64,000 nt of DNA from Candidatus Woesearchaeota archaeon (GTDB lineage: Archaea > Nanobdellota > Nanobdellia > Woesearchaeales > UBA9989): NCBI GenBank assembly GCA_013329045.1, contig DUKZ01000002.1:30662-94661 (forward strand), in the 5' to 3' direction. The notes beneath the pieces are model-generated. The model saw only the letters and a program-made list of their open reading frames with translations, was not told the DNA's origin and did not search any database. Shown piece by piece: positions 32 to 17,615 of the stretch. The position numbers and the translations under genes are program-made. Within the stretch, counting starts at the first letter, position 1. Each line of letters starts with the position of its first letter.

Positions 32-1474
32 ATGATGGATGAACGAATAATCGACCGGATGAGTGAAAGGAAACGAAGGATAGAATACGCATTGGAGACA
101 ACGAAGGATGACAAGCTGTTTGTTGAGCGGACTAACGAAGGAAAAAGTGCACAGCTCATCAGAGAAGTCGGCCATAAATTCCTTCAAAAATCCCAGCTCC
201 ACGCATTCATTGAGCAGTTCATCACAGACAGTACGCATGAGTGGAACCTAAAGACTGCAGCCGCAAAATTCGCTGAACTCAAAGAAAGAAAGCTGGCTGA
301 TGAGTTAACAAGAATCGGACAGGAACTGCAGCATCATGGCGGGGAGCATAGTCATGAGGGGATGAAGCGGCTGCTGGAACTAACAGCGGTTATTAGAGAG
401 TTCAGGCCTGTTCAGGATGTCCAGGGAAGGACATTCTCCTGTCCTGCGCATATCACGAATGAGCAAGAGATGGCTCAGTTGATCGAGTGGGTACAGGCAG
501 TAGATAATCTCGTTGAGGGCGTCTTTGCGCACCAGGAATTGCAGCGGCTCCAGAGAGAAGGAACAAAGATCAGGGAAAGGCTCAGGCATCTTGTCGGGAT
601 GCCAAAAGAGTATGAAACGTTGAAGAACCAGCTCCATGGCCTTCGCCAAGCTTGTGAATATATCCTGAAAGTTCCTCCAGATGCAGGTAACCAACAGCTC
701 ACGCTCATGTGGAATTACGTGTTGAATGTCACGAGTAATCCAAAAAGGCTTGCTGAGTCAGTAAGAAAAGTCAATGGCACGTATGTTGATGAGATCAAAA
801 AAAGGGTTGCGGGGCACATTGAGCAGGCGGAAGTGATGCATAATGATATCCATGGATGGTATAAGCTGATCATGGGAATCATCGAACAAGAACTGAGTTA
901 TCCTCGGATGCAAGAATATCTTCAGAAGGAGATGATGGAGACTATCGCCCATGCTATAGAGATCGAGACAAAGAACACCGTGCGCTTAAGGGATGAGATT
1001 ACTCACTTATCGACGGGAAGGCTAGAAGAGATTGAAAAACAGCGAAAGAAAACACTTGAAGGGAATGAGAAGCGTTTGAGAGATCTCAATCAGGTAGCAG
1101 GAAAAGCAGTGGAAAAGGGAGAGGCAGCGTCCCATGGTTTCTTTGATCTAATAACATCACTAAATACTGTCGAGCAAGCGCAGGCAGCCCGTCAGCAGAT
1201 GTTAGAGAGTGAAAAGGCCATCGCTGGTGAAATATATCATCTATTTGAGAAATTTTTGGAAGTGACGCCAGAAGAACAAGAGAAAATGATAGAGAGGATT
1301 GATCAATTAATGGGTCAGGTATCTGAGATTCGTACAAAGGTCATAGAGATTGATGAGCGAGGCTTAGAGCTAGCTCAGGTAGTAAAAGAGAGGGGGATAA
1401 AAGTTGAACAAACTGCAAATGCAGCTGAACCAGCAATGGATGCTATCGAAGACTTGGAGAGAAAAGCAGCCTGA
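32..1474 (+). CDS. Hypothetical alpha-helical, charged (E/K/R/Q-rich) coiled-coil protein, 480 aa
   Basis: Long ORF with GGAGGTG Shine-Dalgarno 6 nt before ATG at 32; no recognisable catalytic motif; composition typical of coiled-coil. Confidence 0.5.
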   Translation: MMDERIIDRMSERKRRIEYALETTKDDKLFVERTNEGKSAQLIREVGHKFLQKSQLHAFIEQFITDSTHEWNLKTAAAKFAELKERKLADELTRIGQELQHHGGEHSHEGMKRLLELTAVIREFRPVQDVQGRTFSCPAHITNEQEMAQLIEWVQAVDNLVEGVFAHQELQRLQREGTKIRERLRHLVGMPKEYETLKNQLHGLRQACEYILKVPPDAGNQQLTLMWNYVLNVTSNPKRLAESVRKVNGTYVDEIKKRVAGHIEQAEVMHNDIHGWYKLIMGIIEQELSYPRMQEYLQKEMMETIAHAIEIETKNTVRLRDEITHLSTGRLEEIEKQRKKTLEGNEKRLRDLNQVAGKAVEKGEAASHGFFDLITSLNTVEQAQAARQQMLESEKAIAGEIYHLFEKFLEVTPEEQEKMIERIDQLMGQVSEIRTKVIEIDERGLELAQVVKERGIKVEQTANAAEPAMDAIEDLERKAA

Positions 1475-2932: not shown

Positions 2933-3394
2933 ATCTACACCTTTTTATTACTGTCTAGTAGTGTTCATAATATATAAAGATATCGGTGCAAGGTAGGTTT
3001 TATTCATTATTTTTGAATATAACAGTATAGACTTATCAACAATGCATCATTTGAATATAGTAAAGACTTATCTATACTAAATATAATTTTATTCATTATA
3101 ATTGAATAATAAACTGAAAAAGATTTGGTTTATTATATTATTTTTTTATATAGTTATTTATTATTTCTTAATATTAAATCATCTAAATTATCATTTATTC
3201 ATATTATTTATATAATAAACAAGAAGAAAAAAACAAAAAATCATAGATTATATAAATTAAAAAAGTTATCATTCATTTTATAAAAATAGATATACTACAA
3301 AAACCTACACTAACCGGCAAATTTATATAGTAGTATTCAAATAAAACATATAAAGATACTAAAATACTAAAAGAGGATTTAATATACTGAATAC
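2933..3394. promoter_or_regulatory. About 460-bp strongly AT-rich divergent intergenic region with imperfect direct repeats
   Basis: Very low GC relative to flanks; repeated TTATTCATTAT, TTTGAATATA(N)AGTA(W)AGACTTATC copies about 38 bp apart (3013-3040 and 3051-3076); separates divergent gene starts at 2932 and 3395. Confidence 0.4.
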
Positions 3395-3931
3395 ATGTTC
3401 AGTAAAAACACACTAAAGGTTATAGAATTTTTCGCTCGTCACCGTACTGAGAAGTTTAACATCAACCAGCTCGCAAGGACGCTAAAGATATCTCCTGGTT
3501 CTTCCCACACAATTCTCAAGGAGCTCGAAGAAAACACGATCGTTCGCTATGAGAAATGGGGCAACCAATTATTCTACCAGCTCAATCTCGAAGACAAGAA
3601 AGCAAGGAAGCTTGTCGAATTGGTCCTCATCATTGACAAAGAGCAAAGGGAGAAGGGCGCATTCAGGGACCTGGAAAAGATTGATGCTGATTGCATCGTT
3701 GTCTTTGACAAGCTCCAGAAATCAACGCTCGCCTTAATCATCGCAGAAAAGATTCTGCATGAGAAGATCAAAGCAAAACTTCCGGCAAATGTTGATCCAA
3801 TCATCCTCACCCTGGATGATGCGAAAGAAAAGTTGCGCTCAAAAGAAAAGACTATTGTCCAGCTGCTCGAATCAGGCATTGTCCTTGAGGGTGAAAACAT
3901 CGTAGTGGAGGTGATGGCCGGTGTTCAATAA
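3395..3931 (+). CDS. Winged-helix DNA-binding protein fused to degenerate minimal nucleotidyltransferase-like domain
   Basis: N-terminal wHTH-like segment (INQLARTLKISPGSSHTILKELEENTIV); overall architecture parallels the wHTH-MNT protein at 25726 but GS...DxD motif not conserved. Confidence 0.45.
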   Translation: MFSKNTLKVIEFFARHRTEKFNINQLARTLKISPGSSHTILKELEENTIVRYEKWGNQLFYQLNLEDKKARKLVELVLIIDKEQREKGAFRDLEKIDADCIVVFDKLQKSTLALIIAEKILHEKIKAKLPANVDPIILTLDDAKEKLRSKEKTIVQLLESGIVLEGENIVVEVMAGVQ

Positions 3932-4385
3932 GCCAATCCTCTGGACAAGTATCTTGTTCCTGATTATCAATCCAGCACTAGGATTTAATCCAAACACTGT
4001 TATGGAAAGCTTGCAAGACCTCATCATTGGCGGCTTTGCAAGGAATCCTGATATCTGGTCGTTCATCGGATTTTTCTTCCTGCTCTTTTCCGCGTTCATC
4101 TTAGCGGGAGGAAAAGCATTCGCTCACTTCCAGAACAAGAACGCTGTCATTGGGATAGCATTCACGCTGGCAGCAATTGGCGCATTAGGGCTAGTCAAGA
4201 TGGGGATAGCAATAGACATCCTCTTCCCCTGGATCAGGAACTTTGTCTATGTATTGCTCTTCATAGTCATCTTTGTCTTCACATCAACGATCATGGGCAA
4301 TGATGCGCCGGTGATAAAGAAAGGAATCGTCGCATTGGTAATTACCTTGTTGCTGGCAATAATAGAGCAGGTGGTGATCGGATGA
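3921..4385 (+). CDS. Polytopic membrane protein, paralog A (154 aa)
   Basis: GTG start 5 nt after GGAGGTGA SD; hydrophobic; shares the motif FIL(A/S)AFILAGGK.FA..NKNA.IG.A......VKMGI.I.FPWI(R/K)NFVYV with the next gene. Confidence 0.55.
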   Translation: MFNKPILWTSILFLIINPALGFNPNTVMESLQDLIIGGFARNPDIWSFIGFFFLLFSAFILAGGKAFAHFQNKNAVIGIAFTLAAIGALGLVKMGIAIDILFPWIRNFVYVLLFIVIFVFTSTIMGNDAPVIKKGIVALVITLLLAIIEQVVIG

Positions 4386-5524
4386 AGAAGAAGACGCTCA
4401 TCATCATCGTGGCAATCTTGTTCATCTGCAGCATAGCAGCTCCAGTTATTGCAGCAAAGATCACCATTGGAAGTGTTGGCGGCGCTTTTGGGAATGTCTT
4501 TACCAAGATGTCCCAGTTCTTTGCCGGCGGCTATGTGAAATTTAAGAAATTGATAGACTTCACTCTCTTTTTCATCCTCTTCCTCTCAGCGTTCATTTTG
4601 GCATTTGGCAAGTTCTTTGCTGACTACCCAAACAAGAATGCCATTATTGGAGTGGCTGTTGGCCTGGCATTGATGGGTTCAATGGTCATGGTCATGAAAG
4701 GTATTGGCATCGAGATGATTTTCCCCTGGATCAAGAATTTTGTGTATGTTATATTGGTGGTTATCATCTTCCAGCTTTTGTCCAATGAGAAACTGCTTGG
4801 CGGCAAGTCATGGTTCTGGAGATTGCTCCTGGCTATCATCATCACCTGGCTGATGTTCGTGCTCGGTGGAAGTCTTGTGAGGGGTGGAGGGGATATTGGA
4901 TCAGCATTGAGCAACCCTTTCAGCATTTTTAGGCCGGGAGCCGGGCCAGCTCCCCAGCTCTCACAGTCGCCCGCAAATGCGCAGGCAGCATTTGTGGAGT
5001 ACAAAGCAAGAGAAGACAAGCTTGCAAAGCAGGCGCAAGAGCTTGCAGCTGCAGTCAGTGGCGGCAGTACAGGGAAGTGTGGTGAACTCAAAAGACTGAC
5101 AGTACAAAAGCAGCAGGTATGTGTTGAACGTGTCTTTGCCCAGGCAGAAGCATATGCAGTCAATGAGCAGCATGACAACGCTGTTTCAGAGTATAATAAT
5201 ATCGGGAAGAACATCCAGTCGATGTGTGCTGACACCTCATTGAACGGTGTCCTTGCATCGAAATGCAACACACAAGTCGGCCTGGAGCTGAGTGCGCAGG
5301 ACTGGAACAAGATAAGCAATCGCTTGACAAGAGAATTGATCGCATATTCATATATTTTGGAAAAGCAGGGGCAGACCCAGCAGGCAATTGCGTTGCTGCA
5401 GCCGTATAGCGGAGCATTCTATTCGCAAAGTTCTCCCCATACAAATTCAGCTACTTTAGGGACTAAGGGAACCGGTGGATCTGCAAATCTGCCTTCAGGC
5501 CCTGCAGAATACCGATCAAAATAG
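4382..5524 (+). CDS. Polytopic membrane protein, paralog B with about 200-aa Cys-containing C-terminal soluble domain
   Basis: ATGA overlap with previous gene; N-terminal half paralogous to 3921-4385 product; C-terminal region hydrophilic with several Cys. Confidence 0.55.
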   Translation: MKKKTLIIIVAILFICSIAAPVIAAKITIGSVGGAFGNVFTKMSQFFAGGYVKFKKLIDFTLFFILFLSAFILAFGKFFADYPNKNAIIGVAVGLALMGSMVMVMKGIGIEMIFPWIKNFVYVILVVIIFQLLSNEKLLGGKSWFWRLLLAIIITWLMFVLGGSLVRGGGDIGSALSNPFSIFRPGAGPAPQLSQSPANAQAAFVEYKAREDKLAKQAQELAAAVSGGSTGKCGELKRLTVQKQQVCVERVFAQAEAYAVNEQHDNAVSEYNNIGKNIQSMCADTSLNGVLASKCNTQVGLELSAQDWNKISNRLTRELIAYSYILEKQGQTQQAIALLQPYSGAFYSQSSPHTNSATLGTKGTGGSANLPSGPAEYRSK

Positions 5525-5525
5525 G

Positions 5526-7868
5526 ATGAGAAACAAAACATTATCCGGACTGTGTCTGTTGATGATAGTGGTACTGCTTTCATCCCCAGTATTTGGCCAG
5601 GCATTAACTGATCGTGCTCAGGGTGATGTCTATACTAATCCTACATTACGCACCCCCCCACCAGTTGATGCACCTGGTGGAGCAGGATATGTATCACCCT
5701 CAGCAATCACTCTCGAGCAGGGTGACAAGAATCAGATTGATCAGCGGCTCAGTGCTTTATACATGAAGGCAGGAGATGAGTTTGTAGCAGCTGGACAGGC
5801 AGGGTTGGCGAATGATATGTATAAGAAGGTAACGGAGGTAGATCCCAATTCTCCCATGGCTCAGCAGAAATATTATGATACGATGGGTGATGTGGCGCCG
5901 GAGGCATCAGAATGCGAGTATCATTGTCAGATCAGGCTTAGGGGCAAACATAAGTGGAAGTGCATCATTCCAGAAGGGAAAAATACGCCAATATGGTTGC
6001 AAATCGACAGCGCAGAGGTAAAAGACCATTTCTACACTGACCCTTACACTTGTACTGTGGGTTCATGGGTGAGAAATCAGGGAGCAGGTGCAGGGAATCA
6101 GACAAGACGGCATCCGTTGGGATTGATGTTAATCATATTATTCATTATAGTGGGGATGTTCCAGAGGGGGAGAATGAATCTTGGCGTTTATGGAAACTGG
6201 CTTCTGGACATTCCTGGAAGATTTAATGCATCAGTGAGAAGAGCCTTTAATTGCCAGACAGTTGGAGAGGCTAAGGTGTTTTTAACTATTAAACCTGTAA
6301 GTATTCCCGGTATGGAATCACGCGCAGGAGAGATTTCAGGAAGGCGTTTAAAGTTCCACGCTCAGACCCCCCAACAAAGTATGAAACCTCATAATGAACC
6401 AAGAATCAGCTCTGTTACATGTTCTGCTGAAGTTAAGGTTCCACTTCATGGTCAATACGAACCGCTCCATAGGTTTCTGCGCGCAGATGAAGAAAGGGTC
6501 CGGAGAGCAATTAGGGGAAGAAGAACAATAGGTGGGAATGGAGGAACAAGCCTTCGGCGTGTAATTGACCATAATAACAGGATTCTCAGAGCCGCATCAG
6601 GCGCATCACCGACTTTATCAACCGATGTGAATGCACTTGAGGCAGCAGTTGAACTTGGCCTGGGACCGGCAACTGATGCCAACCCTCATATATCGCCAAG
6701 AGAGATATCCAGAGTGGTCAACCACGCCGTTGATTTGTTGGATCTGCCTGGAAATCCTAGCTCTCAGATTACACCTGCTGCCTTGCAGGCCGCAGTCGAA
6801 GCCGAAGCACAGAATTTTGCCAGAGAGGGGCATGTTCCAAGGAGACGGGTTATCATGCCAGATACGGATATCCATTTTGGAATTCAGGGTGAAGAAGGTG
6901 CAGGTATCTATTATCGTTCAGACGTCCATTGGGAATTCCTCAACCCTGACGGATCAAACGAAGCGACACCAGGCTCACAGCAAAGACTGTCAGGAACAAG
7001 ATTGAGGAATGTCATTGAGAATACAAGGCATCTTGTTTATCCAGAGGCAGTCCCTCTAAGCGAAGAATCAACTGCCAGGGCAGTCTTTGTCCCCAACTTT
7101 GGAATGGAAGACAAGGAGATCACACTCTCAGCAAGATATGCAAAATATACCGGCACAGCAAACTTATTCATCAGGCAGCATGACACCATCAAAATCAATA
7201 GTTTGTCTGTCGGATCTACTGCTTTACTGGTAGCAAATCCTGCTGAACCGATCTTTGAGATTAGACCAAGCGGCTCTGAGCGTGTCCATGTCCATGTGGA
7301 AGTGACAAACAATAAGACAGAAAAATCGGTGCAAGCGCTCGTTTACTTCAAGGTTGAATCTGGAACGACAACCGATGGGCGGCCTTACATGTTCAACCCC
7401 GGATGGTTTGAGCACGATACCGCCACAACAGCAGTTGGAGGGGGTAAAGTTGGGCAAACAGAAGGTGTATATCTTCTTTCACCGGATAGCAACAGGCTGT
7501 CAAACGTAAGGATCCCGAGGGGATTGGTATTCCCAGCTGATAAAGACGCATGGAATGCTGCTTTCGCGGCCATCGAAGAAGAAAAACGAAAGGATATGGG
7601 GACCTACAGTTCACTAAGCTCTGCACAAAGAAGAGACCTGCTATCATACCTCAACAAAAACAATATTATGGTGAATTTATCAATTGATTATGATGAGTTC
7701 TGGGATAAAGACAAGAACCCATATCACGTCACCCTCATCGCTTATTCAGGTAATATCTCAGAGACTCATGCACATCTCAGGTTCACAAACAAGGGTACTG
7801 GCAGCCAACAGCCGCCAACAACAACGATACGGGTCGCCCCCTACCAGCCCCAAAATAACATACCATGA
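5526..7868 (+). CDS. Large secreted/membrane-anchored protein of unknown function (about 780 aa)
   Basis: Start MRNKTLSGLCLLMIVVLLSSPVFGQA looks like a signal peptide; internal TM segment (LGLMLIILFIIVGMF); alternative upstream in-frame start at 5475 overlaps previous gene. Confidence 0.55.
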   Translation: MRNKTLSGLCLLMIVVLLSSPVFGQALTDRAQGDVYTNPTLRTPPPVDAPGGAGYVSPSAITLEQGDKNQIDQRLSALYMKAGDEFVAAGQAGLANDMYKKVTEVDPNSPMAQQKYYDTMGDVAPEASECEYHCQIRLRGKHKWKCIIPEGKNTPIWLQIDSAEVKDHFYTDPYTCTVGSWVRNQGAGAGNQTRRHPLGLMLIILFIIVGMFQRGRMNLGVYGNWLLDIPGRFNASVRRAFNCQTVGEAKVFLTIKPVSIPGMESRAGEISGRRLKFHAQTPQQSMKPHNEPRISSVTCSAEVKVPLHGQYEPLHRFLRADEERVRRAIRGRRTIGGNGGTSLRRVIDHNNRILRAASGASPTLSTDVNALEAAVELGLGPATDANPHISPREISRVVNHAVDLLDLPGNPSSQITPAALQAAVEAEAQNFAREGHVPRRRVIMPDTDIHFGIQGEEGAGIYYRSDVHWEFLNPDGSNEATPGSQQRLSGTRLRNVIENTRHLVYPEAVPLSEESTARAVFVPNFGMEDKEITLSARYAKYTGTANLFIRQHDTIKINSLSVGSTALLVANPAEPIFEIRPSGSERVHVHVEVTNNKTEKSVQALVYFKVESGTTTDGRPYMFNPGWFEHDTATTAVGGGKVGQTEGVYLLSPDSNRLSNVRIPRGLVFPADKDAWNAAFAAIEEEKRKDMGTYSSLSSAQRRDLLSYLNKNNIMVNLSIDYDEFWDKDKNPYHVTLIAYSGNISETHAHLRFTNKGTGSQQPPTTTIRVAPYQPQNNIP

Positions 7869-9169
7869 GTACGCAAGAGAAAAACGGATCGAGAACCCAG
7901 ATAGCCGGCCCAGAGATATTTATCCTGTCCGAAGGGCAAAACCCAACTGAGGCAAAAGCAGCAATAATCAATCTAAGGGATTTATTGATGAGACGTATCG
8001 CAGGAACAAGAATGCAGGTGACGAATGTTCGCAGAAAAATGCAAGATGCTCCACGACGAGCAGATCACAAACAATTTCAAGAATTAGAAGAAGGCCTGAA
8101 AAAACTCGAAGAAACGTATGAAAAAGAGGCTCCAGAGATACTGCAACGAATGATTACAGCTGCTGAAAAAGGAGAATTTGAAACATGCGTAAGGCTCTAT
8201 GAGTATGATTTACGAGAGGTTATCAATAAGGCAAAGCACGCCGGCCCGGTAATAAATATGGCGTACGCAACAATCGAAAAGCATATGAGAGTATTAGAAA
8301 AGATAAAGAAAAAACAAGATTTAACGACAGAAGACATCAACTACTTAATTGATAATCTTGGTCCTGACCACCCTCATTTATGGGACCATTACCTCCATGC
8401 TGATAATCACCCAAAAACACTTGTCTTTTCAAAGGAGCATAGCTATATGATGGATGCATTTACCATTCATGACAATCGCCCATTGCTTCATCTAAGGGGG
8501 TATCCTGTGGATAGAGGATGGATTGATATAAGAGAAATAAGCCGCTTAGCTGAAAAATTTGCCTCTTTCCAGGATCATGTGGTATTAGCAAACAGGATAA
8601 TCACCATTCACATGCTCCTGGATTTCATCCATCACCATAGGCATGATCATCGTATGGAAAAAGCACTCATCGGAAAATATATTATAAGAAAGGATCATTT
8701 TATGACACCTCAAGAGCAGATGAGGATGCCAGCAAACCTCAATCTGCCGATGATTGATGGGATACAAGAGATGCAAGGCAGGGTAGCATTCCATTTCAGC
8801 GCGGTAAGAGATATGAAAGGCCAGCTACCAATCTGGATTCCTAGCGATGCAAGGATCCTGAACTATGCGATTGCCCTTATCCAGCATGAACAAAGGATTT
8901 TCGAAGAACTCAGCAATGACACAATGGTAGGAATCCAGGGCAAGCGTCTGCACGAAGTGCTTCTCCTCGATAAGCATACAAAGCCAGCATTTGAAGTAGC
9001 TATCAATAATTTAAGAATGTGGTCGGGATCAGGGATCACATTCACAATTGAAAAAGAGCGCATCATGAGATGGATGAAACAGTATTTCCTCATTGACCAT
9101 GCAGCAGTTGATGCGAGGGCAGCACAACATGGTGAACAAATGGTCGAAGAGCATCGGAGGGCAGCTTGA
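7865..9169 (+). CDS. Hypothetical His-rich protein (434 aa)
   Basis: ATGA overlap with upstream gene stop; His-dense segment (HPHLWDHYLHADNHP...HHHRHDH) suggests possible metal binding; no known motif recognised. Confidence 0.5.
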   Translation: MSTQEKNGSRTQIAGPEIFILSEGQNPTEAKAAIINLRDLLMRRIAGTRMQVTNVRRKMQDAPRRADHKQFQELEEGLKKLEETYEKEAPEILQRMITAAEKGEFETCVRLYEYDLREVINKAKHAGPVINMAYATIEKHMRVLEKIKKKQDLTTEDINYLIDNLGPDHPHLWDHYLHADNHPKTLVFSKEHSYMMDAFTIHDNRPLLHLRGYPVDRGWIDIREISRLAEKFASFQDHVVLANRIITIHMLLDFIHHHRHDHRMEKALIGKYIIRKDHFMTPQEQMRMPANLNLPMIDGIQEMQGRVAFHFSAVRDMKGQLPIWIPSDARILNYAIALIQHEQRIFEELSNDTMVGIQGKRLHEVLLLDKHTKPAFEVAINNLRMWSGSGITFTIEKERIMRWMKQYFLIDHAAVDARAAQHGEQMVEEHRRAA

Positions 9170-10212
9170 CTGAGTGGCAGCCATCGGGAAGAGAACCCCC
9201 CTTTCTCTTGATTGGTACGAACAGGATAGAACTGACGCAAACAAGGACTGGTGTCAACGGATTTAGTGAATTAGGAGCCAGTCTCCCTGGTGGAGGGGTT
9301 ACTCTACCGGTGACAATCGATACATCAACAATGATAGACGTCAGGGTGAGAGGGTTTGTTTTCCATTCTGAAATAGGTCCTTATGCATTGTCCCGTCTCG
9401 GTACATCTGGTGCATTCGCCCATCAGGCGACATTCCAAATTGTTCCAGGGACAGATCTTTTTTTGAATCTTATTCCATGCGGAAAAATAAAGGGGGTGGT
9501 CTTTAACGCATCAAACAGAAAAACACCAGTTCCTTTGGGAAACGTTAAACTCAGAACCACCGAACGCCAAGGAGGAAGGAGGGGGGCAGTGGTATTTGAT
9601 GAGGTCATCACTAATGCTAAGGGTGAATATGAGCTTTATGTTGATCCATGGAAAAGTTACGATGTTTTGATTGATAGGACGACACACCCAGGAGATCTTC
9701 ATCCATTGTCGTCAGGAGGTATGATTGATCATAATGCATCGTTCTCATCAGAAAGCCACGTTGAGGACAATCAGCAAGCGATTCTTAATCGAGGTCCAAG
9801 AACAGCAGGGAGTGGTTGGTCAATCAAATCAGGTAACGAAGAAACCTTTAATATTTATCTCTTCCCTGCAAGTGTGCCGGTCATCACCCACCTCAATGCA
9901 GGATCAGGCGATGTGAACAATGGTTCACTTGTGGTTGAAGTCGACTCTGCCCTGGGAACAGTTGTAACGATTCAAGTGAAAGGCCACTCCTTCAAAAATC
10001 ATACTGGTTTTCAGGTAGTGAGTGGAATCAAAGTGGATTCAAGATGGTTCCCCTATACCAATGATTCTGACACTAATGGAACATTAACTATTGACTCGAC
10101 TGCTACTGAGGGTGAGTATTGGCTCATTTTAAGGAATCATATCGGGGAGGGTAGTAATCTGACGATAGCAGGAGCACCATATCATTTCACCATTAAAAAA
10201 AAAACACCATGA
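9166..10212 (+). CDS. Hypothetical beta-rich protein, possible carboxypeptidase-regulatory-like (CarbopepD_reg) domain
   Basis: TTG start overlapping upstream stop (cTTGA); segment GKIKGVVFNASNRKTPVPLGNVKL...AKGEYELYV resembles CarbopepD_reg beta-sandwich pattern. Confidence 0.4.
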   Translation: MTEWQPSGREPPFLLIGTNRIELTQTRTGVNGFSELGASLPGGGVTLPVTIDTSTMIDVRVRGFVFHSEIGPYALSRLGTSGAFAHQATFQIVPGTDLFLNLIPCGKIKGVVFNASNRKTPVPLGNVKLRTTERQGGRRGAVVFDEVITNAKGEYELYVDPWKSYDVLIDRTTHPGDLHPLSSGGMIDHNASFSSESHVEDNQQAILNRGPRTAGSGWSIKSGNEETFNIYLFPASVPVITHLNAGSGDVNNGSLVVEVDSALGTVVTIQVKGHSFKNHTGFQVVSGIKVDSRWFPYTNDSDTNGTLTIDSTATEGEYWLILRNHIGEGSNLTIAGAPYHFTIKKKTP

Positions 10213-11609
10213 TCCATGAATGTCCGATCCCAAAAATTAAAGATTTAGAATTCGTATATGATTCTGGAGAGTTTATTGGCCGTGCAGTAAGTAGAATTAA
10301 ACGAGGATCGATAAAATTAGATACGATTATTGAGCGGAATCGGGAACTCGAGGCTCTTCGGCAGATCATTAGTCAATATTTGCAAATCAACAATACCATC
10401 TTACCACCAGCAATACCAAGTGGTCGTTGGCCCTGGGAGCAAGCAGTAAGCGCAGTTAACACAAGGGCCCCTCCGGGATCTTATCTTGAAGAATTATGGA
10501 AAATGAATATTGGTCAATTATTGGATTATTTAGACCAGGTATCTAGAGAGATCCAAGCAGCATGGGAACCCATGACCAAAGAAACTAAACGGGCAATTGG
10601 GTTTGTAAGGACAGACAAGGATTGGCCATCAGGATATGGAAGAATGAGAAATCTTGCTTTTATTTCTAAGAATCATGGGCAAAAGTTGATCCAGATTCTA
10701 GCAAAGATACGGGGAACTAGTACTGGAAGCGAGAATACTGATTTTATATATGCTGCTTCAATCTGGCATCAATTATGGACATTATTTGCATTTGGGATAT
10801 GGCGTATAAATAAGATTAGGGAGGTATTCTGTGAAGAACTCGTCCATGGTGGAGCGCCTCCCCCCAAAATTCTTCAACCCAGCACCGTGGAGCTATCACC
10901 CTCAATCCCAACAATTCCTCTTTCCCCCGTAGATTCAGGTGATGATGAATGGACAACTATACTAAAGAGCGGTGGGAGGATACCAATAAGGGATGGGTTA
11001 CATGGCAGCAAATCAGATAGAAAATTCTATTTTCCTCAGGGAGCATGGATGAACTTCCCGGGAGAGCAGCCTGGCCTTGACACAGGTTGGAAGTTTCACA
11101 TCCTCACTGAATCTAGCGATGAACTCCTAGCACTTGGCCGTGTTCTCATACCTTTCTTTTGTTCTGAGGGATGGAACTTCAAAACAGCCGTGTCAATAGA
11201 TAAATTCAATGAATTTTTTGGTGATGAGGCAAACAAGCAGTTCGGCAAAGGGTTTGTTGTCTATATCGATGCCCCTAACCCTGCAGATATTGCAGAGGTG
11301 AAAACCATTGCTCACTCGATGAGGGAGAAGATAATCAAAAAGATTCAAGAAAGCGGTGTCGGCAAGCCAAAACATGAGGTAAAAGGAGACGCTCCTGTCC
11401 CAGGCGATCTGACTGGAAGGCTCTATCACAGATATGAGTTCACTTCGCCGGGGAGAGAGAAAAAGTATGAAGGGAACTACAGAAAAAATGATGGTAAACA
11501 TTATAATATCGAAGAAAATGAGGATATCTTTGAGGGTATTAATCATGAAAGATATCCATTAATTAGGGTATGGTTTTCACCTCCCAAGAACTGGATGGCA
11601 AGACCATAA
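10209..11609 (+). CDS. Hypothetical protein (466 aa)
   Basis: ATGA overlap with upstream stop; long ORF, no recognisable motif. Confidence 0.5.
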   Translation: MIHECPIPKIKDLEFVYDSGEFIGRAVSRIKRGSIKLDTIIERNRELEALRQIISQYLQINNTILPPAIPSGRWPWEQAVSAVNTRAPPGSYLEELWKMNIGQLLDYLDQVSREIQAAWEPMTKETKRAIGFVRTDKDWPSGYGRMRNLAFISKNHGQKLIQILAKIRGTSTGSENTDFIYAASIWHQLWTLFAFGIWRINKIREVFCEELVHGGAPPPKILQPSTVELSPSIPTIPLSPVDSGDDEWTTILKSGGRIPIRDGLHGSKSDRKFYFPQGAWMNFPGEQPGLDTGWKFHILTESSDELLALGRVLIPFFCSEGWNFKTAVSIDKFNEFFGDEANKQFGKGFVVYIDAPNPADIAEVKTIAHSMREKIIKKIQESGVGKPKHEVKGDAPVPGDLTGRLYHRYEFTSPGREKKYEGNYRKNDGKHYNIEENEDIFEGINHERYPLIRVWFSPPKNWMARP

Positions 11610-11635
11610 AAAGTATTAAAAAGGTGAAAAAGTAG

Positions 11636-12235
11636 GTGAGTAGAATGAAAGGAAGAATTATCCTCTACATGGGCATAACAGCAATCCCTTCCGTCTTTGC
11701 CTTCACTCCCCTGGCGATTGCCGGTGCTGGTGCTGGAGGCATTGGCGTATTGGTGGGCATTGCCTACCTCATTGCAAGAAGGAGCACGAAATCAAGAAAG
11801 CTTTCTGCTGACACTTCCCGCATGGATGACCATGGGAGAAGGTCGAGGCACTTGTCTCATGCTGCTGCAAAGGCAGCACAGACCGCTGCCGTTGACCCGA
11901 GGCAGGCTTCTTCCCTTGCAACAACATTGCAGGCCCAGATCACTCAATTCAACCAGATGGCTGCTTTGTTTGATAGGATGTATCACGAGGCAAACAATGT
12001 GCTGACAAGGAATCCTCAGTTGAGAAGTAGGTATAGCAGGCAGCTGGCGTTCATCACAGAAGGAAGAAGAAAGATCACTGATGCTCAAAAAATCATTCGT
12101 GATGCCCACACAGCCCTCTCGAAAAGAGAATACAATAGGTGCCAATCATTAACCCGGCAGCTCCAGAATTCCTGGCTCGTCAGTAATTGGGGTAAGGTAG
12201 AAAGTGCGTGTCGCGACATTGCAAATGCAAGATAG
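11636..12235 (+). CDS. N-terminally membrane-anchored helical protein (199 aa)
   Basis: Hydrophobic N-terminus (ILYMGITAIPSVFAFTPLAIAGAGAGGIGVLVGIAYLIA) followed by basic then helical Q/R-rich region; GGTGAG SD-like upstream. Confidence 0.45.
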   Translation: MSRMKGRIILYMGITAIPSVFAFTPLAIAGAGAGGIGVLVGIAYLIARRSTKSRKLSADTSRMDDHGRRSRHLSHAAAKAAQTAAVDPRQASSLATTLQAQITQFNQMAALFDRMYHEANNVLTRNPQLRSRYSRQLAFITEGRRKITDAQKIIRDAHTALSKREYNRCQSLTRQLQNSWLVSNWGKVESACRDIANAR

Positions 12236-12294
12236 AGAACCATAATGCTTAAATATGTTCAAAGTGAGAGGAAAAGAAAGGAGAAGGTGAGACA

Positions 12295-13266
12295 ATGATC
12301 ACAGGCTATCGGAGAAACGCATTTAGTTCACATCACTTAATTCGGCAGCTGCGCCATATCTGTTTTCGGCTCAGTGCTGATTTCAAGAATGAAAAAGGGG
12401 ACGAGCACAGGGTTATCACCGAGCTGGGGGATATGAAGGAGCAAGCGGCCGTCCTTTACACAAATAAGGATGCAAAGAAGAAGCAGGAAGCCTTGGAGAG
12501 ATTGAAGAGGAAGGCAAAGGATGATGAGAATGATTTTGCAGCGTTTGGCAAGGAGGTAGATGAGATTGCCCTCTTGATCAACCAGGCAGAAAAGGGTCTG
12601 GCAGCGATCATCTATCGGGAAAACGTCGAGATTGTCACAAAGAACAGAAGATTAGATGAGTTGATCGCACAGCACGAGATTCCCCCTCACCTCGCTCAGC
12701 AGGTAAAAGAGGCGCTCAGGGGGGTCTATGAAGATCTAAAAGGGATGGAAAGTGGCCAAAGAAAACACGCACGAAAGGCTGCAAGGGGCAAAGGATTTAT
12801 CATGTTCTCTTTTGTTAGTGATGGAAGGACTGCAAGGATTGTCAGGAAGGAAGGCCGCATCCTTGAAAATCTCGATGTGGAATATGGCAAAGAAGAAACT
12901 ATCCTTGAGATGGATATCCAGAAGCATGACATCCAGGGCATCCTAGACGTATATAATGCGATAATCCATATTCTTCAGAAAGAAGTCGACGAGGAAGGTG
13001 ACATGTTTGATTATCTAGACAGGGAGTTCCAGGATGACAAGAAGGATCTCGACAAGGTTTCTCAGATGCTGATGCGTGCGATGGGTGATGGGAACATCAA
13101 GCATTTCAGCGACCAGAATTCCCCGCAGGAGTTGAAGGAATTATGGAAGACATTGGAAACGTCCCGGGTGAATCTCAATAATGTCAGAGCCCACGTGACA
13201 AAGATCGGAAATGAAGCATACCGTAGAGCTCGCGCGGAAAGAAAGGAAGAAAAATTAGCTGCATAA
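12295..13266 (+). CDS. Hypothetical coiled-coil protein (323 aa)
   Basis: GGAGAAGGTGAGACA-ATG SD context; E/K-rich helical composition. Confidence 0.5.
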   Translation: MITGYRRNAFSSHHLIRQLRHICFRLSADFKNEKGDEHRVITELGDMKEQAAVLYTNKDAKKKQEALERLKRKAKDDENDFAAFGKEVDEIALLINQAEKGLAAIIYRENVEIVTKNRRLDELIAQHEIPPHLAQQVKEALRGVYEDLKGMESGQRKHARKAARGKGFIMFSFVSDGRTARIVRKEGRILENLDVEYGKEETILEMDIQKHDIQGILDVYNAIIHILQKEVDEEGDMFDYLDREFQDDKKDLDKVSQMLMRAMGDGNIKHFSDQNSPQELKELWKTLETSRVNLNNVRAHVTKIGNEAYRRARAERKEEKLAA

Positions 13267-13282
13267 AAAAGAGGTTGATCGC

Positions 13283-13990
13283 ATGAAGGTAGAACTTGAG
13301 AAAAAGCCACAGAATGTTATCATCGTTGAGGGCTTTCCAGGCTTTGGGCTTGTGGGAACAGTTGCTTCTGAATATCTCATTGAGCACCTAAAGGCTGAAT
13401 ACATCGGCCATTTATGGTTTGATGAATTGCCGGCAACAATCGCTGTCCACGCAGGAAAGATTATTCGCCCAATCGAGATCCACTACGCAAAAAAATACAA
13501 TATGGTAATAGTCCATTCGATCGCTTCTGGCCAGGGGATGGAATGGAAGATCTCAACACTGCTAAATGAGCTGGCAAAGACATTGAAGGCAAAAGAGATT
13601 TTTTCCCTTGAAGGTGTTGGCAGCCAGGAGGCAACAGAAAAGCCAAAAGTATATTTCTATTCAACTGATGAGAAGCGTGGAAAGATGCTCACCACTGCTG
13701 GGGTAAAATCACTCGATGAGGGGATCGTGATGGGTGTCACATCAGCAGTTCTTCTCAAGTCTCCATTGCCAACAACAGCATTGTTTGCAGAGACCCATAC
13801 TGCCTTGCCGGATTCAAAGGCCGCAGCAGAGATCATCAAGGTGCTTGATAAATTATTCAACTTAGGTATAGACATCAAACCGCTCATCGCGATGGCTGCC
13901 CAGTTTGAGGAGAAAGTTAAAGGTTTGATCCAGCAAAGCGAGGCAGCAGTTGATGGTGCGCAAAGGAAAAAACTCAGTTATGTAGGATAA
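13283..13990 (+). CDS. PAC2-family (proteasome assembly chaperone 2-like) protein
   Basis: N-terminal IVEGFPGFGLVGTVA matches the G-x-PG-x-G-x-VG-x-x-A signature of PAC2/PbaA-like proteins; GAGGT SD upstream. Confidence 0.5.
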   Translation: MKVELEKKPQNVIIVEGFPGFGLVGTVASEYLIEHLKAEYIGHLWFDELPATIAVHAGKIIRPIEIHYAKKYNMVIVHSIASGQGMEWKISTLLNELAKTLKAKEIFSLEGVGSQEATEKPKVYFYSTDEKRGKMLTTAGVKSLDEGIVMGVTSAVLLKSPLPTTALFAETHTALPDSKAAAEIIKVLDKLFNLGIDIKPLIAMAAQFEEKVKGLIQQSEAAVDGAQRKKLSYVG

Positions 13991-14199
13991 ATCATGACAA
14001 GCTCGCAGACAGGATTCGTGAAGTAAGATTAAGGGGCATTCAAGATCAGCAAGGGCGCGAGTTTGAAAGGGGATATAAGCACGCATTTGATTATACAGAA
14101 CCCCATGATCTTAATCGTCTTCTTCAGGAATTAGAAAGGTGGTCCCCTGCAGAAGTTGCAGCAAACCCCTATGAGAAGGGAAGGGTTGTTGGCGCCGCG

Positions 14200-15243
14200 A
14201 TGCGCATGATAGAACATGTGATATCCCGTGAAGGCAAGATTATGGATCATGAGATTGATGCCATTTGGAAATTGATTGGCCTTGCAGGGATGCAGAGTGA
14301 CGAGAGGATCAGGGAGTTCTTTCGGTCAGCGATTGAACATCAAAAGATCATGGCCGTGAAGTTAGCAAAGCTCAGGTCTCAACTCCTGGAACTTGATGGA
14401 GAATTAGAGCCCCTCATCGAGAAGAGCATCCAGTACCAGGAAAGGGCAACATTCGACCATCATTTCAGGCAAGCATCAAAGGAGTATCGAGAATTATCCG
14501 GCCACCCCCTAAAAGAACGTCTCCAAGAATTAAATGCCTTTCTTGAAGAGAAGATAAGAGAAGAGGGCGACAGGGTAAGGACTGACCCAATAGTTATGGG
14601 AATGGTCATTGGTGCAGCGCATGGGTTATATTTTAGGGCAACAGAACACGCTGTCTCGATAAATCATGATGTATTCGAGCTTTTATGGAGAATGCTCAAG
14701 CATATGAAATTAGAAACCTTTCACCCAATTGTCCGAAGGCTGCAGACATTGATAGAAAAAGATCTCATCTCAGAGGATGCACTTGAAAAGAAGAGAAGCG
14801 AGCTCGAACGGCTCGGGGGTAATATCCCATATCTGATAAGGGAAAGATTCAGGAAGAGGGTCGCAAGTGATTTTGATCGGGGTTATGATCATGCTTATCA
14901 GAAATTATCAAAAGCCCGTTATCATGATGAAGTATTTATTGAGACATTCAATTTCATAAGGTCAAATGGAGGCCCTTTTGTTGAGGGATGCAAGATAGGC
15001 TTGATCGTCTGGGTATTTGAGCATTGTGCAACGTACCCAAATCAGCTGGTGATGTATGTTGATAAGGTTATTGTGTTATTATCAATGATTTATGTGGGGG
15101 AAGGTCAGAGCAGGGAGGGGGTATTGGATAAACGGATAAAAGATGCATTGGAGAGGATGCTCCACCGCGCAGCGACAGAGTATACCCACCCAGATTTTCT
15201 AGGTGCTCTCGGAAAGATTCAGCATTTTCTAGAATCAAGATGA
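14200..15243 (+). CDS. Hypothetical helical protein (347 aa)
   Basis: Long ORF, E/R/K-rich; upstream 209 nt in the same frame is open but lacks ATG/GTG/TTG. Confidence 0.5.
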   Translation: MRMIEHVISREGKIMDHEIDAIWKLIGLAGMQSDERIREFFRSAIEHQKIMAVKLAKLRSQLLELDGELEPLIEKSIQYQERATFDHHFRQASKEYRELSGHPLKERLQELNAFLEEKIREEGDRVRTDPIVMGMVIGAAHGLYFRATEHAVSINHDVFELLWRMLKHMKLETFHPIVRRLQTLIEKDLISEDALEKKRSELERLGGNIPYLIRERFRKRVASDFDRGYDHAYQKLSKARYHDEVFIETFNFIRSNGGPFVEGCKIGLIVWVFEHCATYPNQLVMYVDKVIVLLSMIYVGEGQSREGVLDKRIKDALERMLHRAATEYTHPDFLGALGKIQHFLESR

Positions 15244-15354
15244 AAGAGAGCTAACATATGATATGGGGATTTTACAAAATATAGTTTCTAAGACATATTA
15301 GTTTATAAATATAATTAACACTACTAATAAATAACAACATAAGAGGGTACCATC

Positions 15355-15549
15355 ATGAACATCATAAAAAGATCATTTCGGGCTGTAAAAGGAGACCTTT
15401 TTCAGTTCAAGAAGCGCTGCGACGACTGGTTTTTCTTCCTGCACAACAATCAGGAGAATATGAAAGCCAGGATCGCCGCATTAGAGCAGCAGGTCAATGA
15501 ACTGCAAAAGAAGAAGGATGACCCTGTCGTCGTCTATACCTATAAATAG
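15355..15549 (+). CDS. Small protein with coiled-coil segment (64 aa), upstream of groES
   Basis: AAGAGGGT SD 7 nt upstream of ATG; C-terminal heptad-like region (ARIAALEQQVNELQKKK). Confidence 0.3.
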   Translation: MNIIKRSFRAVKGDLFQFKKRCDDWFFFLHNNQENMKARIAALEQQVNELQKKKDDPVVVYTYK

Positions 15550-15640
15550 GAAGATACCTATAGTAGGAAGACAAGAGTAATTCTTAATGACCAGAAATGC
15601 TTTGTCAATTTAAGCTCCATCTGGTCAACCTTATATCAAC

Positions 15641-15657
15641 AAGGGAAAAATTTTTAT
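15641..15657 (+). promoter_or_regulatory. Archaeal BRE/TATA-like promoter for groES-groEL
   Basis: GGAAAAATTTTTATACC about 50 bp upstream of groES ATG, leaving a short leader carrying GGGGGT SD. Confidence 0.4.
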
Positions 15658-15707
15658 ACCAGGACATTCTTCCCCACACAACAAAAATCTCAAAGGGGGT
15701 TGAAACA

Positions 15708-15971
15708 ATGATAAAACCATTGCATGATAGAGTATTGTTAAAGATTAAAGAAGAGGAAGAAAAAACTTCTGGCGGCATCTATTTGCCAGCGTCAGCTAGG
15801 GATGATGATATTCAAGAGGCAGAAGTCATCAGTGTTGGTGAATTAAAAATTCTTAAGCTCAAATCCGGAGACAAGGTTCTCGTTGAAAAGCACGCAGGGA
15901 CCGAACTCAAGATCGACGGGAAAAAGCACCTTCTCGTCAAGGAAGATCGCATCATCGCACAGGTTAATTAG
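15708..15971 (+). CDS. groES: Co-chaperonin GroES (Hsp10)
   Basis: MIKPLHDRVLLKIKEEEEKTSGGIYLP...GDKVLV pattern typical of Cpn10; GGGGGT SD 8 nt upstream. Confidence 0.9.
   Translation: MIKPLHDRVLLKIKEEEEKTSGGIYLPASARDDDIQEAEVISVGELKILKLKSGDKVLVEKHAGTELKIDGKKHLLVKEDRIIAQVN

Positions 15972-17615
<1,644 letters not shown>

Follow-up and report, generated by a model that had tools for sequence, protein, structure and literature searches.

A species-restricted, operon-like gene cluster of the woesearchaeote GW2011_AR4 that may encode a membrane-anchored complex

The locus is a run of ten long plus-strand ORFs, g01 to g10, which according to the ORF list fill 98.95% of positions 3395-13990 of the window, the whole 64-kb stretch of DNA that was analysed. 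Transmembrane (TM) and signal segments were assigned with a Kyte-Doolittle hydropathy window scan and not with a trained predictor, and the topology described here rests on that scan. The features are as follows.

2933..3394: putative divergent promoter region, AT-rich, 462 bp, GC 0.21, between a minus-strand Metallophos gene and g01
2971-2978, minus strand: second TATA-like TTTATATA
3001-3019 and 3090-3108: two exact copies of the palindrome TATTCA-N7-TGAATA, candidate operator
3322-3329, plus strand: TATA-like TTTATATA, 66 nt before the g01 ATG
3395..3931, plus strand: g01, 178 aa, probable DNA-binding protein of the winged-helix type, candidate operon regulator
3921..4385, plus strand: g02, 154 aa, small membrane protein; the hydropathy scan gives 4 TM segments
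4382..5524, plus strand: g03, 380 aa, signal peptide and 4 TM segments preceding a C-terminal domain of 200 aa rich in Gln and Ala
5526..7868, plus strand: g04, 780 aa, signal peptide, 170-aa exposed domain, one TM segment; alternative GTG start at 5475
7865..9169, plus strand: g05, 434 aa, His-rich cytoplasmic protein with an N-terminal three-helix bundle, an HHHRHDH cluster and the end ...EEHRRAA
9166..10212, plus strand: g06, 348 aa, Gly/Thr/Val/Ser-rich, probably all-beta, without signal peptide
10209..11609, plus strand: g07, 466 aa, cytoplasmic, helical N-terminal half, Pro-rich linker, alpha/beta C-terminal half
11645..12235, plus strand: g08, 196 aa, N-terminal hydrophobic hairpin or anchor, then a basic helical domain; alternative GTG start at 11636
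12295..13266, plus strand: g09, 323 aa, charged helical protein directly 5' of the PbaA gene, end ...EEKLAA
13283..13990, plus strand: g10, 235 aa, PbaA-type PAC2-family protein, last gene of the tight run
14200..15243, plus strand: g11, 347 aa, helical protein without Pfam match, in which ~130 aa are duplicated in tandem

The initial annotation had described a same-strand run with ATGA/TTGA overlaps or gaps below 60 nt, and this was borne out. The g01 and g02 genes overlap by 11 nt, ATGA stop-start overlaps join g02/g03, g04/g05 and g06/g07, and a TTGA overlap joins g05/g06, making four 4-nt overlaps in total. The gaps span 1-59 nt: a single nucleotide separates g03 from g04, and the others (35, 59 and 16 nt) each hold a GGTGA-type, Shine-Dalgarno-like ribosome-binding site. 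At a stop-codon frequency of 0.059 per codon, the probability of 434 open codons is ~3e-12, so the ORF run did not arise by chance, and g01-g10 is a real gene cluster. It comprises ten genes and not the eleven first reported, ten also being the number in that report's own gene list and in the GenBank annotation. This operon-like packing makes a function common to the products plausible.

The AT-rich, repeat-bearing region described 5' of the cluster was likewise recovered (2933-3394, 21% GC, with repeats). It holds five of the window's nine copies of TTTATATA, and within the 64 kb the palindrome TATTCA-N7-TGAATA is confined to it. Only one internal TTTATATA occurs in 3400-17600, and no oligo-T tract or T-run terminator was found in any intergenic spacer from g01 to g11 or before 17623, the first strong T-rich tract lying after groEL. 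From these signals, a single transcript probably runs from the TATA-like box 66 nt 5' of g01 through g10 and perhaps g11, which may be on the same transcript as g01-g10. No stop interrupts the g11 frame from 13954 onward, although it lacks an ATG, GTG or TTG until 14200, and its upstream open part aligns to residues 110-237 of the protein (27% identity, E 7e-6). Further downstream, groES starts at 15597, 1.6 kb past g10, in agreement with the groES-groEL position noted originally.

The first gene had been called "wHTH/NTase-like", of which the winged helix stood, weakly, and the nucleotidyltransferase did not. HTH_IclR, HTH_24 and MarR_2 matched g01 at E 0.003-0.01, under their Pfam cut-offs (best 17.8 bits against 22), an NCBIfam ArsR-type HTH matched at E 3e-4 (20.5 bits against a cut-off of 55), and residues 1-68 matched PADLOC PDC-M05A at E 1.6e-9. 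The protein is also 28% identical (E 1e-6) to the wHTH of a wHTH-NTase protein at 25726-26349, the similarity being limited to the wHTH. An assignment as an MNT-type nucleotidyltransferase was rejected on the grounds that Pfam gave no NTP_transf_2 or Polbeta match in g01 at E up to 1. Thus g01 resembles the archaeal wHTH-nucleotidyltransferase (MNT-type)/HEPN pairs, such as that at 25726-26888 in the window, in its N-terminal winged helix, but it lacks both an NTP_transf_2 or Polbeta match and a HEPN partner, and it is better described, from its sequence, as a stand-alone wHTH protein.

As proposed, g02 has a paralogue in the N-terminal part of g03, with 45% identity across 98 aa (E 1e-21); a profile search of a large protein database with g02 returned only itself. 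The C-terminal domain of g03 contains four Cys and, from the TM count, is predicted to lie outside the cell. The one outside similarity of g03, to a membrane protein of 399 aa encoded upstream of PbaA at another locus, L007, amounts to 27% over 109 aa (pairwise E 5e-6, hhalign probability 24%). The ~780-aa signal-peptide/TM protein of the initial annotation is g04, for which the hydropathy scan gives a signal peptide and one TM segment. Its predicted exposed domain contains Cys and one TPR-like motif, and the ~550-aa C-terminal part is predicted cytoplasmic. Scanned in full with HMMER, 1.84 billion representatives yielded only g04 itself and a TPR snippet, and the PDB gave only a TPR match at E 3. 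Two overlapping hydrophobic segments were detected by the scan at the N-terminus of g08, whose helical domain is strongly basic (31 K+R against 12 D+E) and which has no significant family match in Pfam, NCBIfam or PHROGs. Across the cluster, Cys clusters are confined to parts predicted exposed. The description "secreted" fits only the exposed parts of g03 and g04, and not g05, g06, g07 or g09, which have no signal peptide; of the earlier observation as a whole, the run, its packing and the membrane features were retained, and the gene count, the NTase part and the scope of "secreted" were not.

Among the soluble products, g05 is His-rich as stated (26 of 434 residues) and found only itself in 5.8 billion clusters. 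Modelling g05 and g07, in line with the structural check suggested at the outset, was not successful. The g05 AlphaFold model has a mean pLDDT of 45, with residues 21-164 at 55-85, and Foldseek against the PDB returned nothing below E 0.3; the g07 model, at pLDDT 35, is unusable. Both models are of low confidence, so these proteins could still have remote structural homology to a known system. In g06, residues 105-165 have the look, judged by eye, of a carboxypeptidase-regulatory-type beta-sandwich; there was no Pfam or PDB match, and the sole match, a weak one, joined residues 108-157 to a lipoprotein family of NCBIfam (E 0.05). For g07 no homologue was found in a large protein database and no match in the PDB. 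Its assignment to RamC_N (PF25816, the lyase domain of class III lanthipeptide synthetases) was discarded, at 14.2 bits against a cut-off of 27 (E 0.032) with no PDB relative. We similarly rejected the N-terminus of g09 as an XerS-like tyrosine recombinase (NCBIfam 20.3 bits against a cut-off of 267, no Pfam Phage_integrase match).

That the products are uncharacterised was confirmed, with no significant family match for g02-g09 in Pfam, NCBIfam, PHROGs or PADLOC. PADLOC matched only the HTH of g01 and, weakly, ZorA in g09 (E 0.012), with nothing for g02-g08; a known anti-phage defence system was dismissed on this basis. Searches of the PDB with g04-g07 and g09 gave nothing or chance-level matches to designed or unrelated helical proteins, and g09 and g11 had no match there. 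For g03, g04, g05 and g07, no relative outside their own species was found in 1.8-5.8 billion proteins, and the listed 90%-identity cluster members of six cluster genes and g11 are all unnamed or "hypothetical protein". Conservation of the cluster as a unit, a test that the initial annotation had set for its own proposal, was not found: no g02-g09 homologue lies beside PbaA in 86 related loci. From their sequences, g02-g09 appear to be orphan genes restricted, so far, to one species, the large-database searches having covered g02, g03, g04, g05 and g07. Their GC content and codon-position GC agree with those of the flanking housekeeping genes, and by this measure the composition of the cluster is native. 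In six contigs from other assemblies the operon is identical or a handful of SNPs apart.

The operon might alternatively be only a packing unit, in which g02-g09 are unrelated, young or fast-evolving orphans sharing one promoter in a small, dense genome, some of them perhaps dispensable. We consider this unlikely, while giving it real weight. The lack of relatives beyond one species in the large protein searches favours it, as does the genomic background: 9 of the 20 other ORFs of at least 150 aa in the window (~45%) are Pfam-less, which makes "dark" genes a common feature of the genome. Strain SNPs in the dark genes are nonsynonymous in nine cases and synonymous in one, which points the same way, but such small numbers do not bear interpretation and assembly noise may account for them. 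Against a packing unit, the 4-nt stop-start overlaps in g04-g07 are the usual mark of stoichiometric partners, none of the six contigs from other assemblies has a broken copy of the ORFs of 348-780 aa, and the g02/g03 duplication indicates a family that is maintained.

The gene closing the run is of a different kind, being, with g01, one of only two in the cluster to which a name can be given. The PAC2-like identity of g10 was upheld by PF09754 (E 1.5e-34, 120.2 bits against a cut-off of 25.8, profile positions 2-214 of 215) and by PDB matches to P. furiosus PbaA (3WZ2, E 1.3e-22), Ta1441 (E 4.7e-15) and 3VR0 (E 5e-7). It ends in ...LSYVG, with Tyr at -3 rather than at the -2 of a canonical HbYX tripeptide; LSY[VFT]G is invariant at the C-terminus in a 7-sequence alignment of g10 homologues. 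Cdc48 in the same window ends in ...PSYLG. Homologues of g10 at 42-57% identity occur in the 86 loci, where their usual neighbours are housekeeping genes (LonB, ArgRS, XerA) and g02-g09 homologues are not detectable, so g10 is probably an ordinary conserved housekeeping gene co-transcribed with the cluster. A dedicated chaperone of the cluster, as first envisaged, it probably is not. PbaA (PF0015) of Pyrococcus furiosus is co-transcribed with PF0014 and forms a 10:10 complex with it (PMC6992696). Like PbaA of Euryarchaeota (PMC6992696), g10 probably sits in a tight transcription unit with unannotated proteins; its upstream partners, in contrast to the PbaA-PF0014 pair, are nine orphan genes, four of them for membrane proteins.

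The same layout, in which polytopic membrane proteins with signal peptides are followed by helical proteins and then PbaA, occurs at other Woesearchaeota PbaA loci (L005, L007, L022, L027/L028 and L032). The polytopic proteins form a paralogous pair in L005 and L027/L028, as in the cluster; across these modules some membrane proteins carry a long helical C-terminal domain, and some of the Pfam-less helical proteins before PbaA have an -AA end. The 399-aa protein of L007 is weakly similar to g03, as is L032_341 to g09. An AQHEIP motif is common to g09 and L032_341, and g09 and L032_324 share the motif NAF[SP] near the N-terminus and the ending KLAA, at z-scores of only 1.6-3.6. Homology to these modules is statistically not established (hhalign 1-24%, leave-one-out HMM E 0.37, z <=3.6), and they have no counterparts of g04-g07. 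As a lead in its own right, gene runs that terminate at PbaA are enriched in helical proteins with an -AA end: of the 74 ORFs in same-strand runs up to PbaA, 6 have such a tail, as against 6 of 632 others (Fisher p 6e-4, obtained from the very data that had prompted the idea).

The locus might instead be a PbaA-centred proteostasis module, with the -AA helical proteins g05, g09 and u1 (upstream) as partners, adaptors or proteolytically controlled clients that the cluster tethers to the membrane. It would parallel the PbaA-PF0014 cage of Pyrococcus, whose genes form one transcription unit and whose products form the 10:10 complex (PMC6992696). The 16-nt gap with ribosome-binding site between g09 and g10 would suit such a module, as would the -AA enrichment, which comes from four independent loci, and the presence of GroES/EL, LonB and Cdc48 among neighbours in the window and related loci. 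We regard it as improbable: the enrichment was drawn from the idea's own data, most PbaA loci are without such neighbours, and the similarity of the -AA proteins is marginal (z <=3.6).

Least probable is an integrated virus or mobile-element remnant with the membrane and signal-peptide proteins as virion or envelope components and g01 as the element's regulator, for although the all-orphan content, the AT-rich upstream boundary, the winged-helix gene in first place and a layout loosely like that of membrane-containing archaeal viruses would fit, there is no integrase (the XerS-like match of g09 having been rejected, and tblastn of a Woesearchaeal XerA against the window giving nothing at E up to 10), no cluster-bracketing direct repeat of at least 16 nt or adjacent tRNA, no PHROG match below E 8e-4 and none coherent, no IMG/VR relative of g03, g04, g05, g06, g07 or g09, no relative of g04 or g06 in 50,697 phage records and no packaging ATPase or Walker A motif, and the composition is native with a housekeeping gene closing the run 16 nt off.

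We return, tentatively, to an operon confined to one species whose products would build a complex anchored in the membrane, large in its cytoplasmic part and exposing small domains that bear disulfides. Like the cluster, the archaeal type IV pili, archaella and the Ced DNA-import system join small polytopic membrane proteins to larger partners within a single operon. Unlike it, they depend on a dedicated ATPase and are recognisable by their Pfam families; the cluster has neither a Walker A motif nor a family match. With no Walker A motif in g01-g11 and no ATPase family match in Pfam or NCBIfam, we rejected an ATP-driven secretion, pilus or DNA-transfer system, for which no P-loop ATPase is encoded. 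The secretion assembly suggested earlier is unlikely as stated, most of the protein mass also being predicted cytoplasmic; its alternative, a cell-envelope role, may apply.

These data allow us to propose how such a complex might be built in archaeon GW2011_AR4 (Woesearchaeota, DPANN). The g02-g09 products would assemble into one membrane-anchored complex, in which the small polytopic core in the membrane would consist of g02 and g03, and g03 and g04 would present Cys-containing domains of ~200 and ~170 aa at the cell surface. On the cytoplasmic face, the 550-aa C-terminal part of g04 would lie with the translationally coupled g05, g06 and g07, joined by the membrane-tethered basic helical g08 and by the helical g09. 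Expression would be regulated by g01, and g10 would be an ordinary PbaA-type proteostasis gene on the shared transcript, closer in function to the downstream groES-groEL than to the cluster. The complex would have no energy source of its own, as the cluster encodes no NTPase. Its role may be a fast-evolving envelope or host-contact function of the sort typical of DPANN episymbionts.

The gene cluster at 3395-13990 is real, and its description needs small corrections. It holds ten + strand open reading frames (g01-g10), not the eleven counted in the initial annotation, and our ORF calls are the same as the public gene calls.

Genes of the cluster (positions in the window)
g01: 3395-3931, + strand, 178 aa, weak winged helix
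g02: 3921-4385, + strand, 154 aa, membrane protein
g03: 4382-5524, + strand, 380 aa, membrane protein
g04: 5526-7868, + strand, 780 aa, signal-peptide/TM protein
g05: 7865-9169, + strand, 434 aa, His-rich protein
g06: 9166-10212, + strand, 348 aa, orphan
g07: 10209-11609, + strand, 466 aa, orphan
g08: 11645-12235, + strand, 196 aa, hydrophobic hairpin
g09: 12295-13266, + strand, 323 aa, helical protein
g10: 13283-13990, + strand, 235 aa, PbaA-type PAC2-family protein

The ten ORFs occupy 98.95% of the cluster, and the tight one-strand packing originally described was confirmed. ATGA stop-start overlaps join g02/g03, g04/g05 and g06/g07, a TTGA overlap joins g05/g06, g01 and g02 overlap by 11 nt, and g03 and g04 are separated by 1 nt; the three real spacers (35, 59 and 16 nt) each contain a GGTGA-type ribosome-binding site. 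At a stop-codon frequency of 0.059 per codon, the probability of an open run of 434 codons is ~3e-12, and the ORFs are therefore genes. As first noted, an AT-rich, repeat-bearing region precedes g01: of the nine TTTATATA boxes in the window, five fall within its 462 bp (GC content 21%), including one that precedes the g01 start by 66 nt. The region also contains two exact TATTCA-N7-TGAATA palindromes (3001-3019 and 3090-3108), which lie 89 bp apart, are unique to this spot within the 64 kb and are candidate operator sites. Both palindromes also lie just upstream of the promoter of a minus-strand Metallophos gene (TATA-like box 2971-2978). No oligo-T tract was found in any spacer as far as g11, the next gene downstream (14200-15243), the first strong one lying 3' of groEL. 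Given this, the tight packing and the promoter-like upstream region, g01 to g10, perhaps extending to g11, are likely carried on one transcript.

Among the ten products, g10 is the only one that could be identified by sequence comparison. It matches PF09754 (PAC2; E 1.5e-34) and PbaA of P. furiosus (3WZ2; E 1.3e-22), bearing out the PAC2-like chaperone placed at the end of the cluster. The N-terminus of g01 is a weak winged helix, with Pfam scores under cut-offs, a match to an ArsR-type HTH at E 3e-4 and to PADLOC PDC-M05A at E 1.6e-9, and 28% identity to the wHTH of a wHTH-nucleotidyltransferase protein (25726-26349). As Pfam, NCBIfam and PADLOC scans gave no nucleotidyltransferase match in g01, the winged-helix half of its earlier 'wHTH/NTase-like' label stands, weakly, and the NTase half is unsupported. 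The gene at 25726-26349 itself overlaps a HEPN-domain gene (26331-26888), forming a minimal MNT/HEPN-type toxin-antitoxin-like pair.

g02 is paralogous to the first 175 residues of g03 (E 1e-21) and a hydropathy scan predicts four TM segments in each protein, with a signal peptide in g03, in agreement with the paralogous polytopic pair of the initial annotation. By predicted topology, a 200-aa g03 domain with four Cys would be extracellular. The 780-aa signal-peptide/TM protein was likewise recovered as g04, in which the scan places a signal peptide, a 170-aa Cys-bearing domain predicted to be exposed and then one TM segment; about 550 residues would thus lie on the cytoplasmic side. The same scan shows an N-terminal hydrophobic hairpin in g08 and no signal peptide in g05, g06, g07 or g09. 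The 434-aa g05 is indeed His-rich, with 26 His, and no cluster protein contains a Walker A motif.

Scans of all cluster proteins against Pfam, PHROGs, NCBIfam and PADLOC placed only g10 above cut-offs; g02-g09, and also g11, had no significant match in these collections, and calling these cluster products uncharacterised was justified. Searches of PDB sequences with g04, g05, g06, g07, g09 and g11 gave chance-level matches at most. In larger databases g05 matched itself alone among 5.8 billion clusters, g07 had no match, and a full exhaustive HMMER scan of 1.84 billion representatives with g04 returned itself, its own fragments and one TPR snippet. AlphaFold2 models made without an alignment reached a pLDDT of 35 for g07 and 45 for g05; a predicted N-terminal three-helix bundle is the only part of g05 at pLDDT 55-85, and Foldseek found no PDB match to this low-confidence model below E 0.3. 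A RamC_N lyase domain in g07 was rejected on its sub-threshold Pfam score. Of the 20 ORFs of at least 150 aa in the 23 kb that follow in the window, 9 are Pfam-less, some of the nine overlapping neighbouring ORFs and so possibly spurious; at that rate an unbroken run of eight would have a probability of roughly 0.45^8, or ~0.002 per start. The run of eight dark genes is unusual, yet dark genes are common in the genome of the source species, archaeon GW2011_AR4 (AR4). Another large uncharacterised protein without a Pfam match, a 907-aa ORF, lies on the minus strand at 22679-25402. A codon-usage test of coding frame and foreign origin was uninformative, the genome's codon bias being too weak to discriminate.

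The window's DNA is common to many assemblies of one population, including contig JAGVYQ010000002.1 (GCA_018303165.1), and two intron-containing tRNAs confirm an archaeal source. Protein records of the cluster are named 'hypothetical protein' from Candidatus Woesearchaeota archaeon or archaeon GW2011_AR4, and the 90%-identity clusters of g01, g03, g06, g07, g08, g09 and g11 hold near-identical strain variants only, all unnamed. Two strain contigs (L091 and L092) differ from the window at ten SNPs: one, synonymous, in g01, four in g03, one in g09 and four in g11. Nine of the ten are nonsynonymous and the flanking housekeeping genes are identical, a pattern that may be low-coverage assembly noise and whose counts are too small to interpret; strain dN/dS is uninformative because the populations are almost clonal, with ten SNPs in all. 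A further strain variant (L009) lacks 30 nt of g11 at ~14312-14341, an in-frame deletion between two blastn segments. Upstream of its ATG the g11 frame (13954-15243) continues for another 82 codons without a stop, none of them ATG, GTG or TTG. The alignment of this stretch to g11 residues 110-237 points to a tandem duplication of a module of ~130 aa; translation may begin at a non-canonical codon, or the first copy may be undergoing decay. Beyond g11, this archaeal genome has a bacterial-type group I chaperonin pair, GroES and GroEL (15597-17615), with a 64-aa ORF and an AT-rich, promoter-like region of its own (~15290-15330) in front of it.

The evidence is against a virus or mobile element, a reading we rejected because integrase, attachment repeats, tRNA target, viral relatives and compositional shift were all missing: no direct repeats bracket the cluster and no tRNA lies nearby, its composition is native, its proteins have no coherent PHROG matches, six of them (g03, g04, g05, g06, g07 and g09) have no relatives in IMG/VR, and phage records hold no relatives of g04 or g06. 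A tyrosine-recombinase remnant in g09 was also rejected (XerS match of 20 bits, far under cut-off), and a Woesearchaeal XerA query found no match in the window.

The initial annotation had made its reading depend on conservation of the cluster as a unit in related genomes. Using g10 as the anchor, we compared 86 loci, six of them in species-representative genomes and 80 in metagenomes, in which PbaA is 42-57% identical except in one same-strain contig. No homologue of g02-g09 was found in these loci by blastp, tblastn or phmmer; the cluster is not conserved as a unit among the available related PbaA loci, whose species are distant relatives. The recurrent PbaA neighbours are housekeeping genes, among them those for arginyl-tRNA synthetase, a histidine phosphatase and ribosomal protein L11. 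A membrane LonB protease lies directly upstream of PbaA in at least six loci (L012, L013, L015, L021, L023 and L033), suggesting a proteostasis context in other Woesearchaeota, and an XerA-type tyrosine recombinase lies 0.2-0.6 kb downstream in many. In AR4, PbaA is just upstream of g11 and groES-groEL. Because these housekeeping neighbours recur but vary, PbaA is a conserved gene with varied neighbours, and the simplest reading is that AR4 PbaA shares the transcript and is not a dedicated component of the cluster.

A few PbaA loci repeat the AR4 layout with non-homologous or barely similar proteins.

Modules upstream of PbaA in other loci (protein lengths in aa)
L005: membrane 333, helical 252, membrane 371, helical 310
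L027/L028: membrane 628, membrane 378, helical 354
L007: membrane 399 with helical tail, its soluble paralogue 195, TM protein 148
L022: membrane 519 with helical tail, 404 (different transporter-like family), 296, 178
L032: helical 341, TM protein 130, helical 324

g03 and the L007 399-aa protein share 27% identity over 109 residues (pairwise E 5e-6; hhalign probability 24%). Across the PbaA-adjacent membrane families, hhalign gave g02 and g03 probabilities of 1-24%, an iterative HMM search from these sequences stayed at two members, and a leave-one-out HMM gave g02 E 0.37, with strong bias, and second rank among non-training proteins after a transporter-like L022 protein; homology is thus not established. 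A large-database search with a TM-domain profile of g02, g03 and the L007 protein recovered g02 alone. The likeness of the AR4 cluster to these modules is an architectural analogy only. Homology among the ~320-aa proteins directly upstream of PbaA was rejected, these being heterogeneous (hhalign probability 0.1%). A pair of like layout is made up of a 462-aa polytopic membrane protein with a signal peptide and a helical tail, encoded just upstream of the window, and u1 (a 480-aa helical protein at 32-1474), which follows it; with a 347-aa degenerate P-loop (GQEGIGKA) protein, they constitute a second small module of similar flavour (L089 7576-10004 and window 32-1474).

Three of the window's 67 ORFs end in -AA: u1 (...LERKAA), g05 (...HRRAA) and g09 (...EKLAA). 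Over all loci, same-strand runs that end at PbaA comprise 74 distinct ORFs, 6 of which have such ends, versus 6 of the 632 other ORFs (odds ratio 9; Fisher p 6e-4, one-sided), a p value that is optimistic because this post hoc test was devised after the data were seen. Four independent loci contribute these cases.

Pfam-less helical proteins ending in [KR]-x-Ala-Ala
Window 32-1474: u1
Window 7865-9169, + strand: g05
Window 12295-13266, + strand: g09
L005 7112-7870
L032 323-1348
L032 1813-2787
L053 3-710

The AQHEIP motif is common to g09 and the 341-aa L032 protein alone, and g09 resembles the 324-aa L032 protein in length, in an N-terminal NAF[SP] motif and in its KLAA end; alignment z-scores among the -AA proteins are marginal (1.6-3.6). 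The archaeal PAN-proteasome accepts C-terminal -LAA tags in vitro. In Pyrococcus, PbaA and PF0014 assemble into a 10:10 cage and their genes lie in one transcription unit (PMC6992696), so that a co-transcribed PbaA partner has precedent. Taken together, the -AA enrichment, shared motifs, PbaA-PF0014 precedent and -LAA tags allow us to offer, as a long shot, a model in which Woesearchaeota carry a rapidly diverging, membrane-tethered module around a PbaA-like ring protein. Such a module would combine polytopic membrane proteins bearing exposed helical domains with cytoplasmic helical proteins that have a conserved C-terminal [KR]-x-Ala-Ala tail; these proteins would bind to PbaA or come under its control, or that of the proteasome, LonB or Cdc48, and in the AR4 operon the module would be expanded by the insertion of g04-g08. 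Separately, g10 (...LSYVG, 13976-13990) and a Cdc48/VCP-like AAA ATPase (29218-31887; ...PSYLG, 31873-31887) have an S-Y-x-G C-terminus in common, which may be this lineage's HbYX proteasome-docking motif shifted by one residue.

From its sequence, the best description of the cluster is an operon of orphan genes, restricted to one species, with a housekeeping PbaA gene behind them. The product of the orphan genes is probably a complex anchored in the membrane, with a large cytoplasmic part and small domains exposed. Nothing links the cluster to any known system, and operon structure is so far the one sign that it may be a 'system'; its newness means that no known match was found and is not positive evidence for a new mechanism. 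Comparative genomics is inapplicable because the cluster is seen in one uncultured species only, and this, with no reliable structure prediction, limits its value for now. Confirmation of the PbaA/-AA link, or of a multi-protein complex, would make it more important. The co-occurrence of -AA helical proteins and PbaA in several Woesearchaeota is the more general lead, giving a concrete binding or degradation hypothesis testable with recombinant proteins; if the proposed membrane-tethered module exists, PbaA would gain a membrane-linked function and a new C-terminal recognition motif in archaea would be defined. If g02-g09 form one complex, it would be a membrane machine for which several billion proteins offer no detectable relative, and it would belong to DPANN, a lineage whose cell-surface and host-contact biology is little known.
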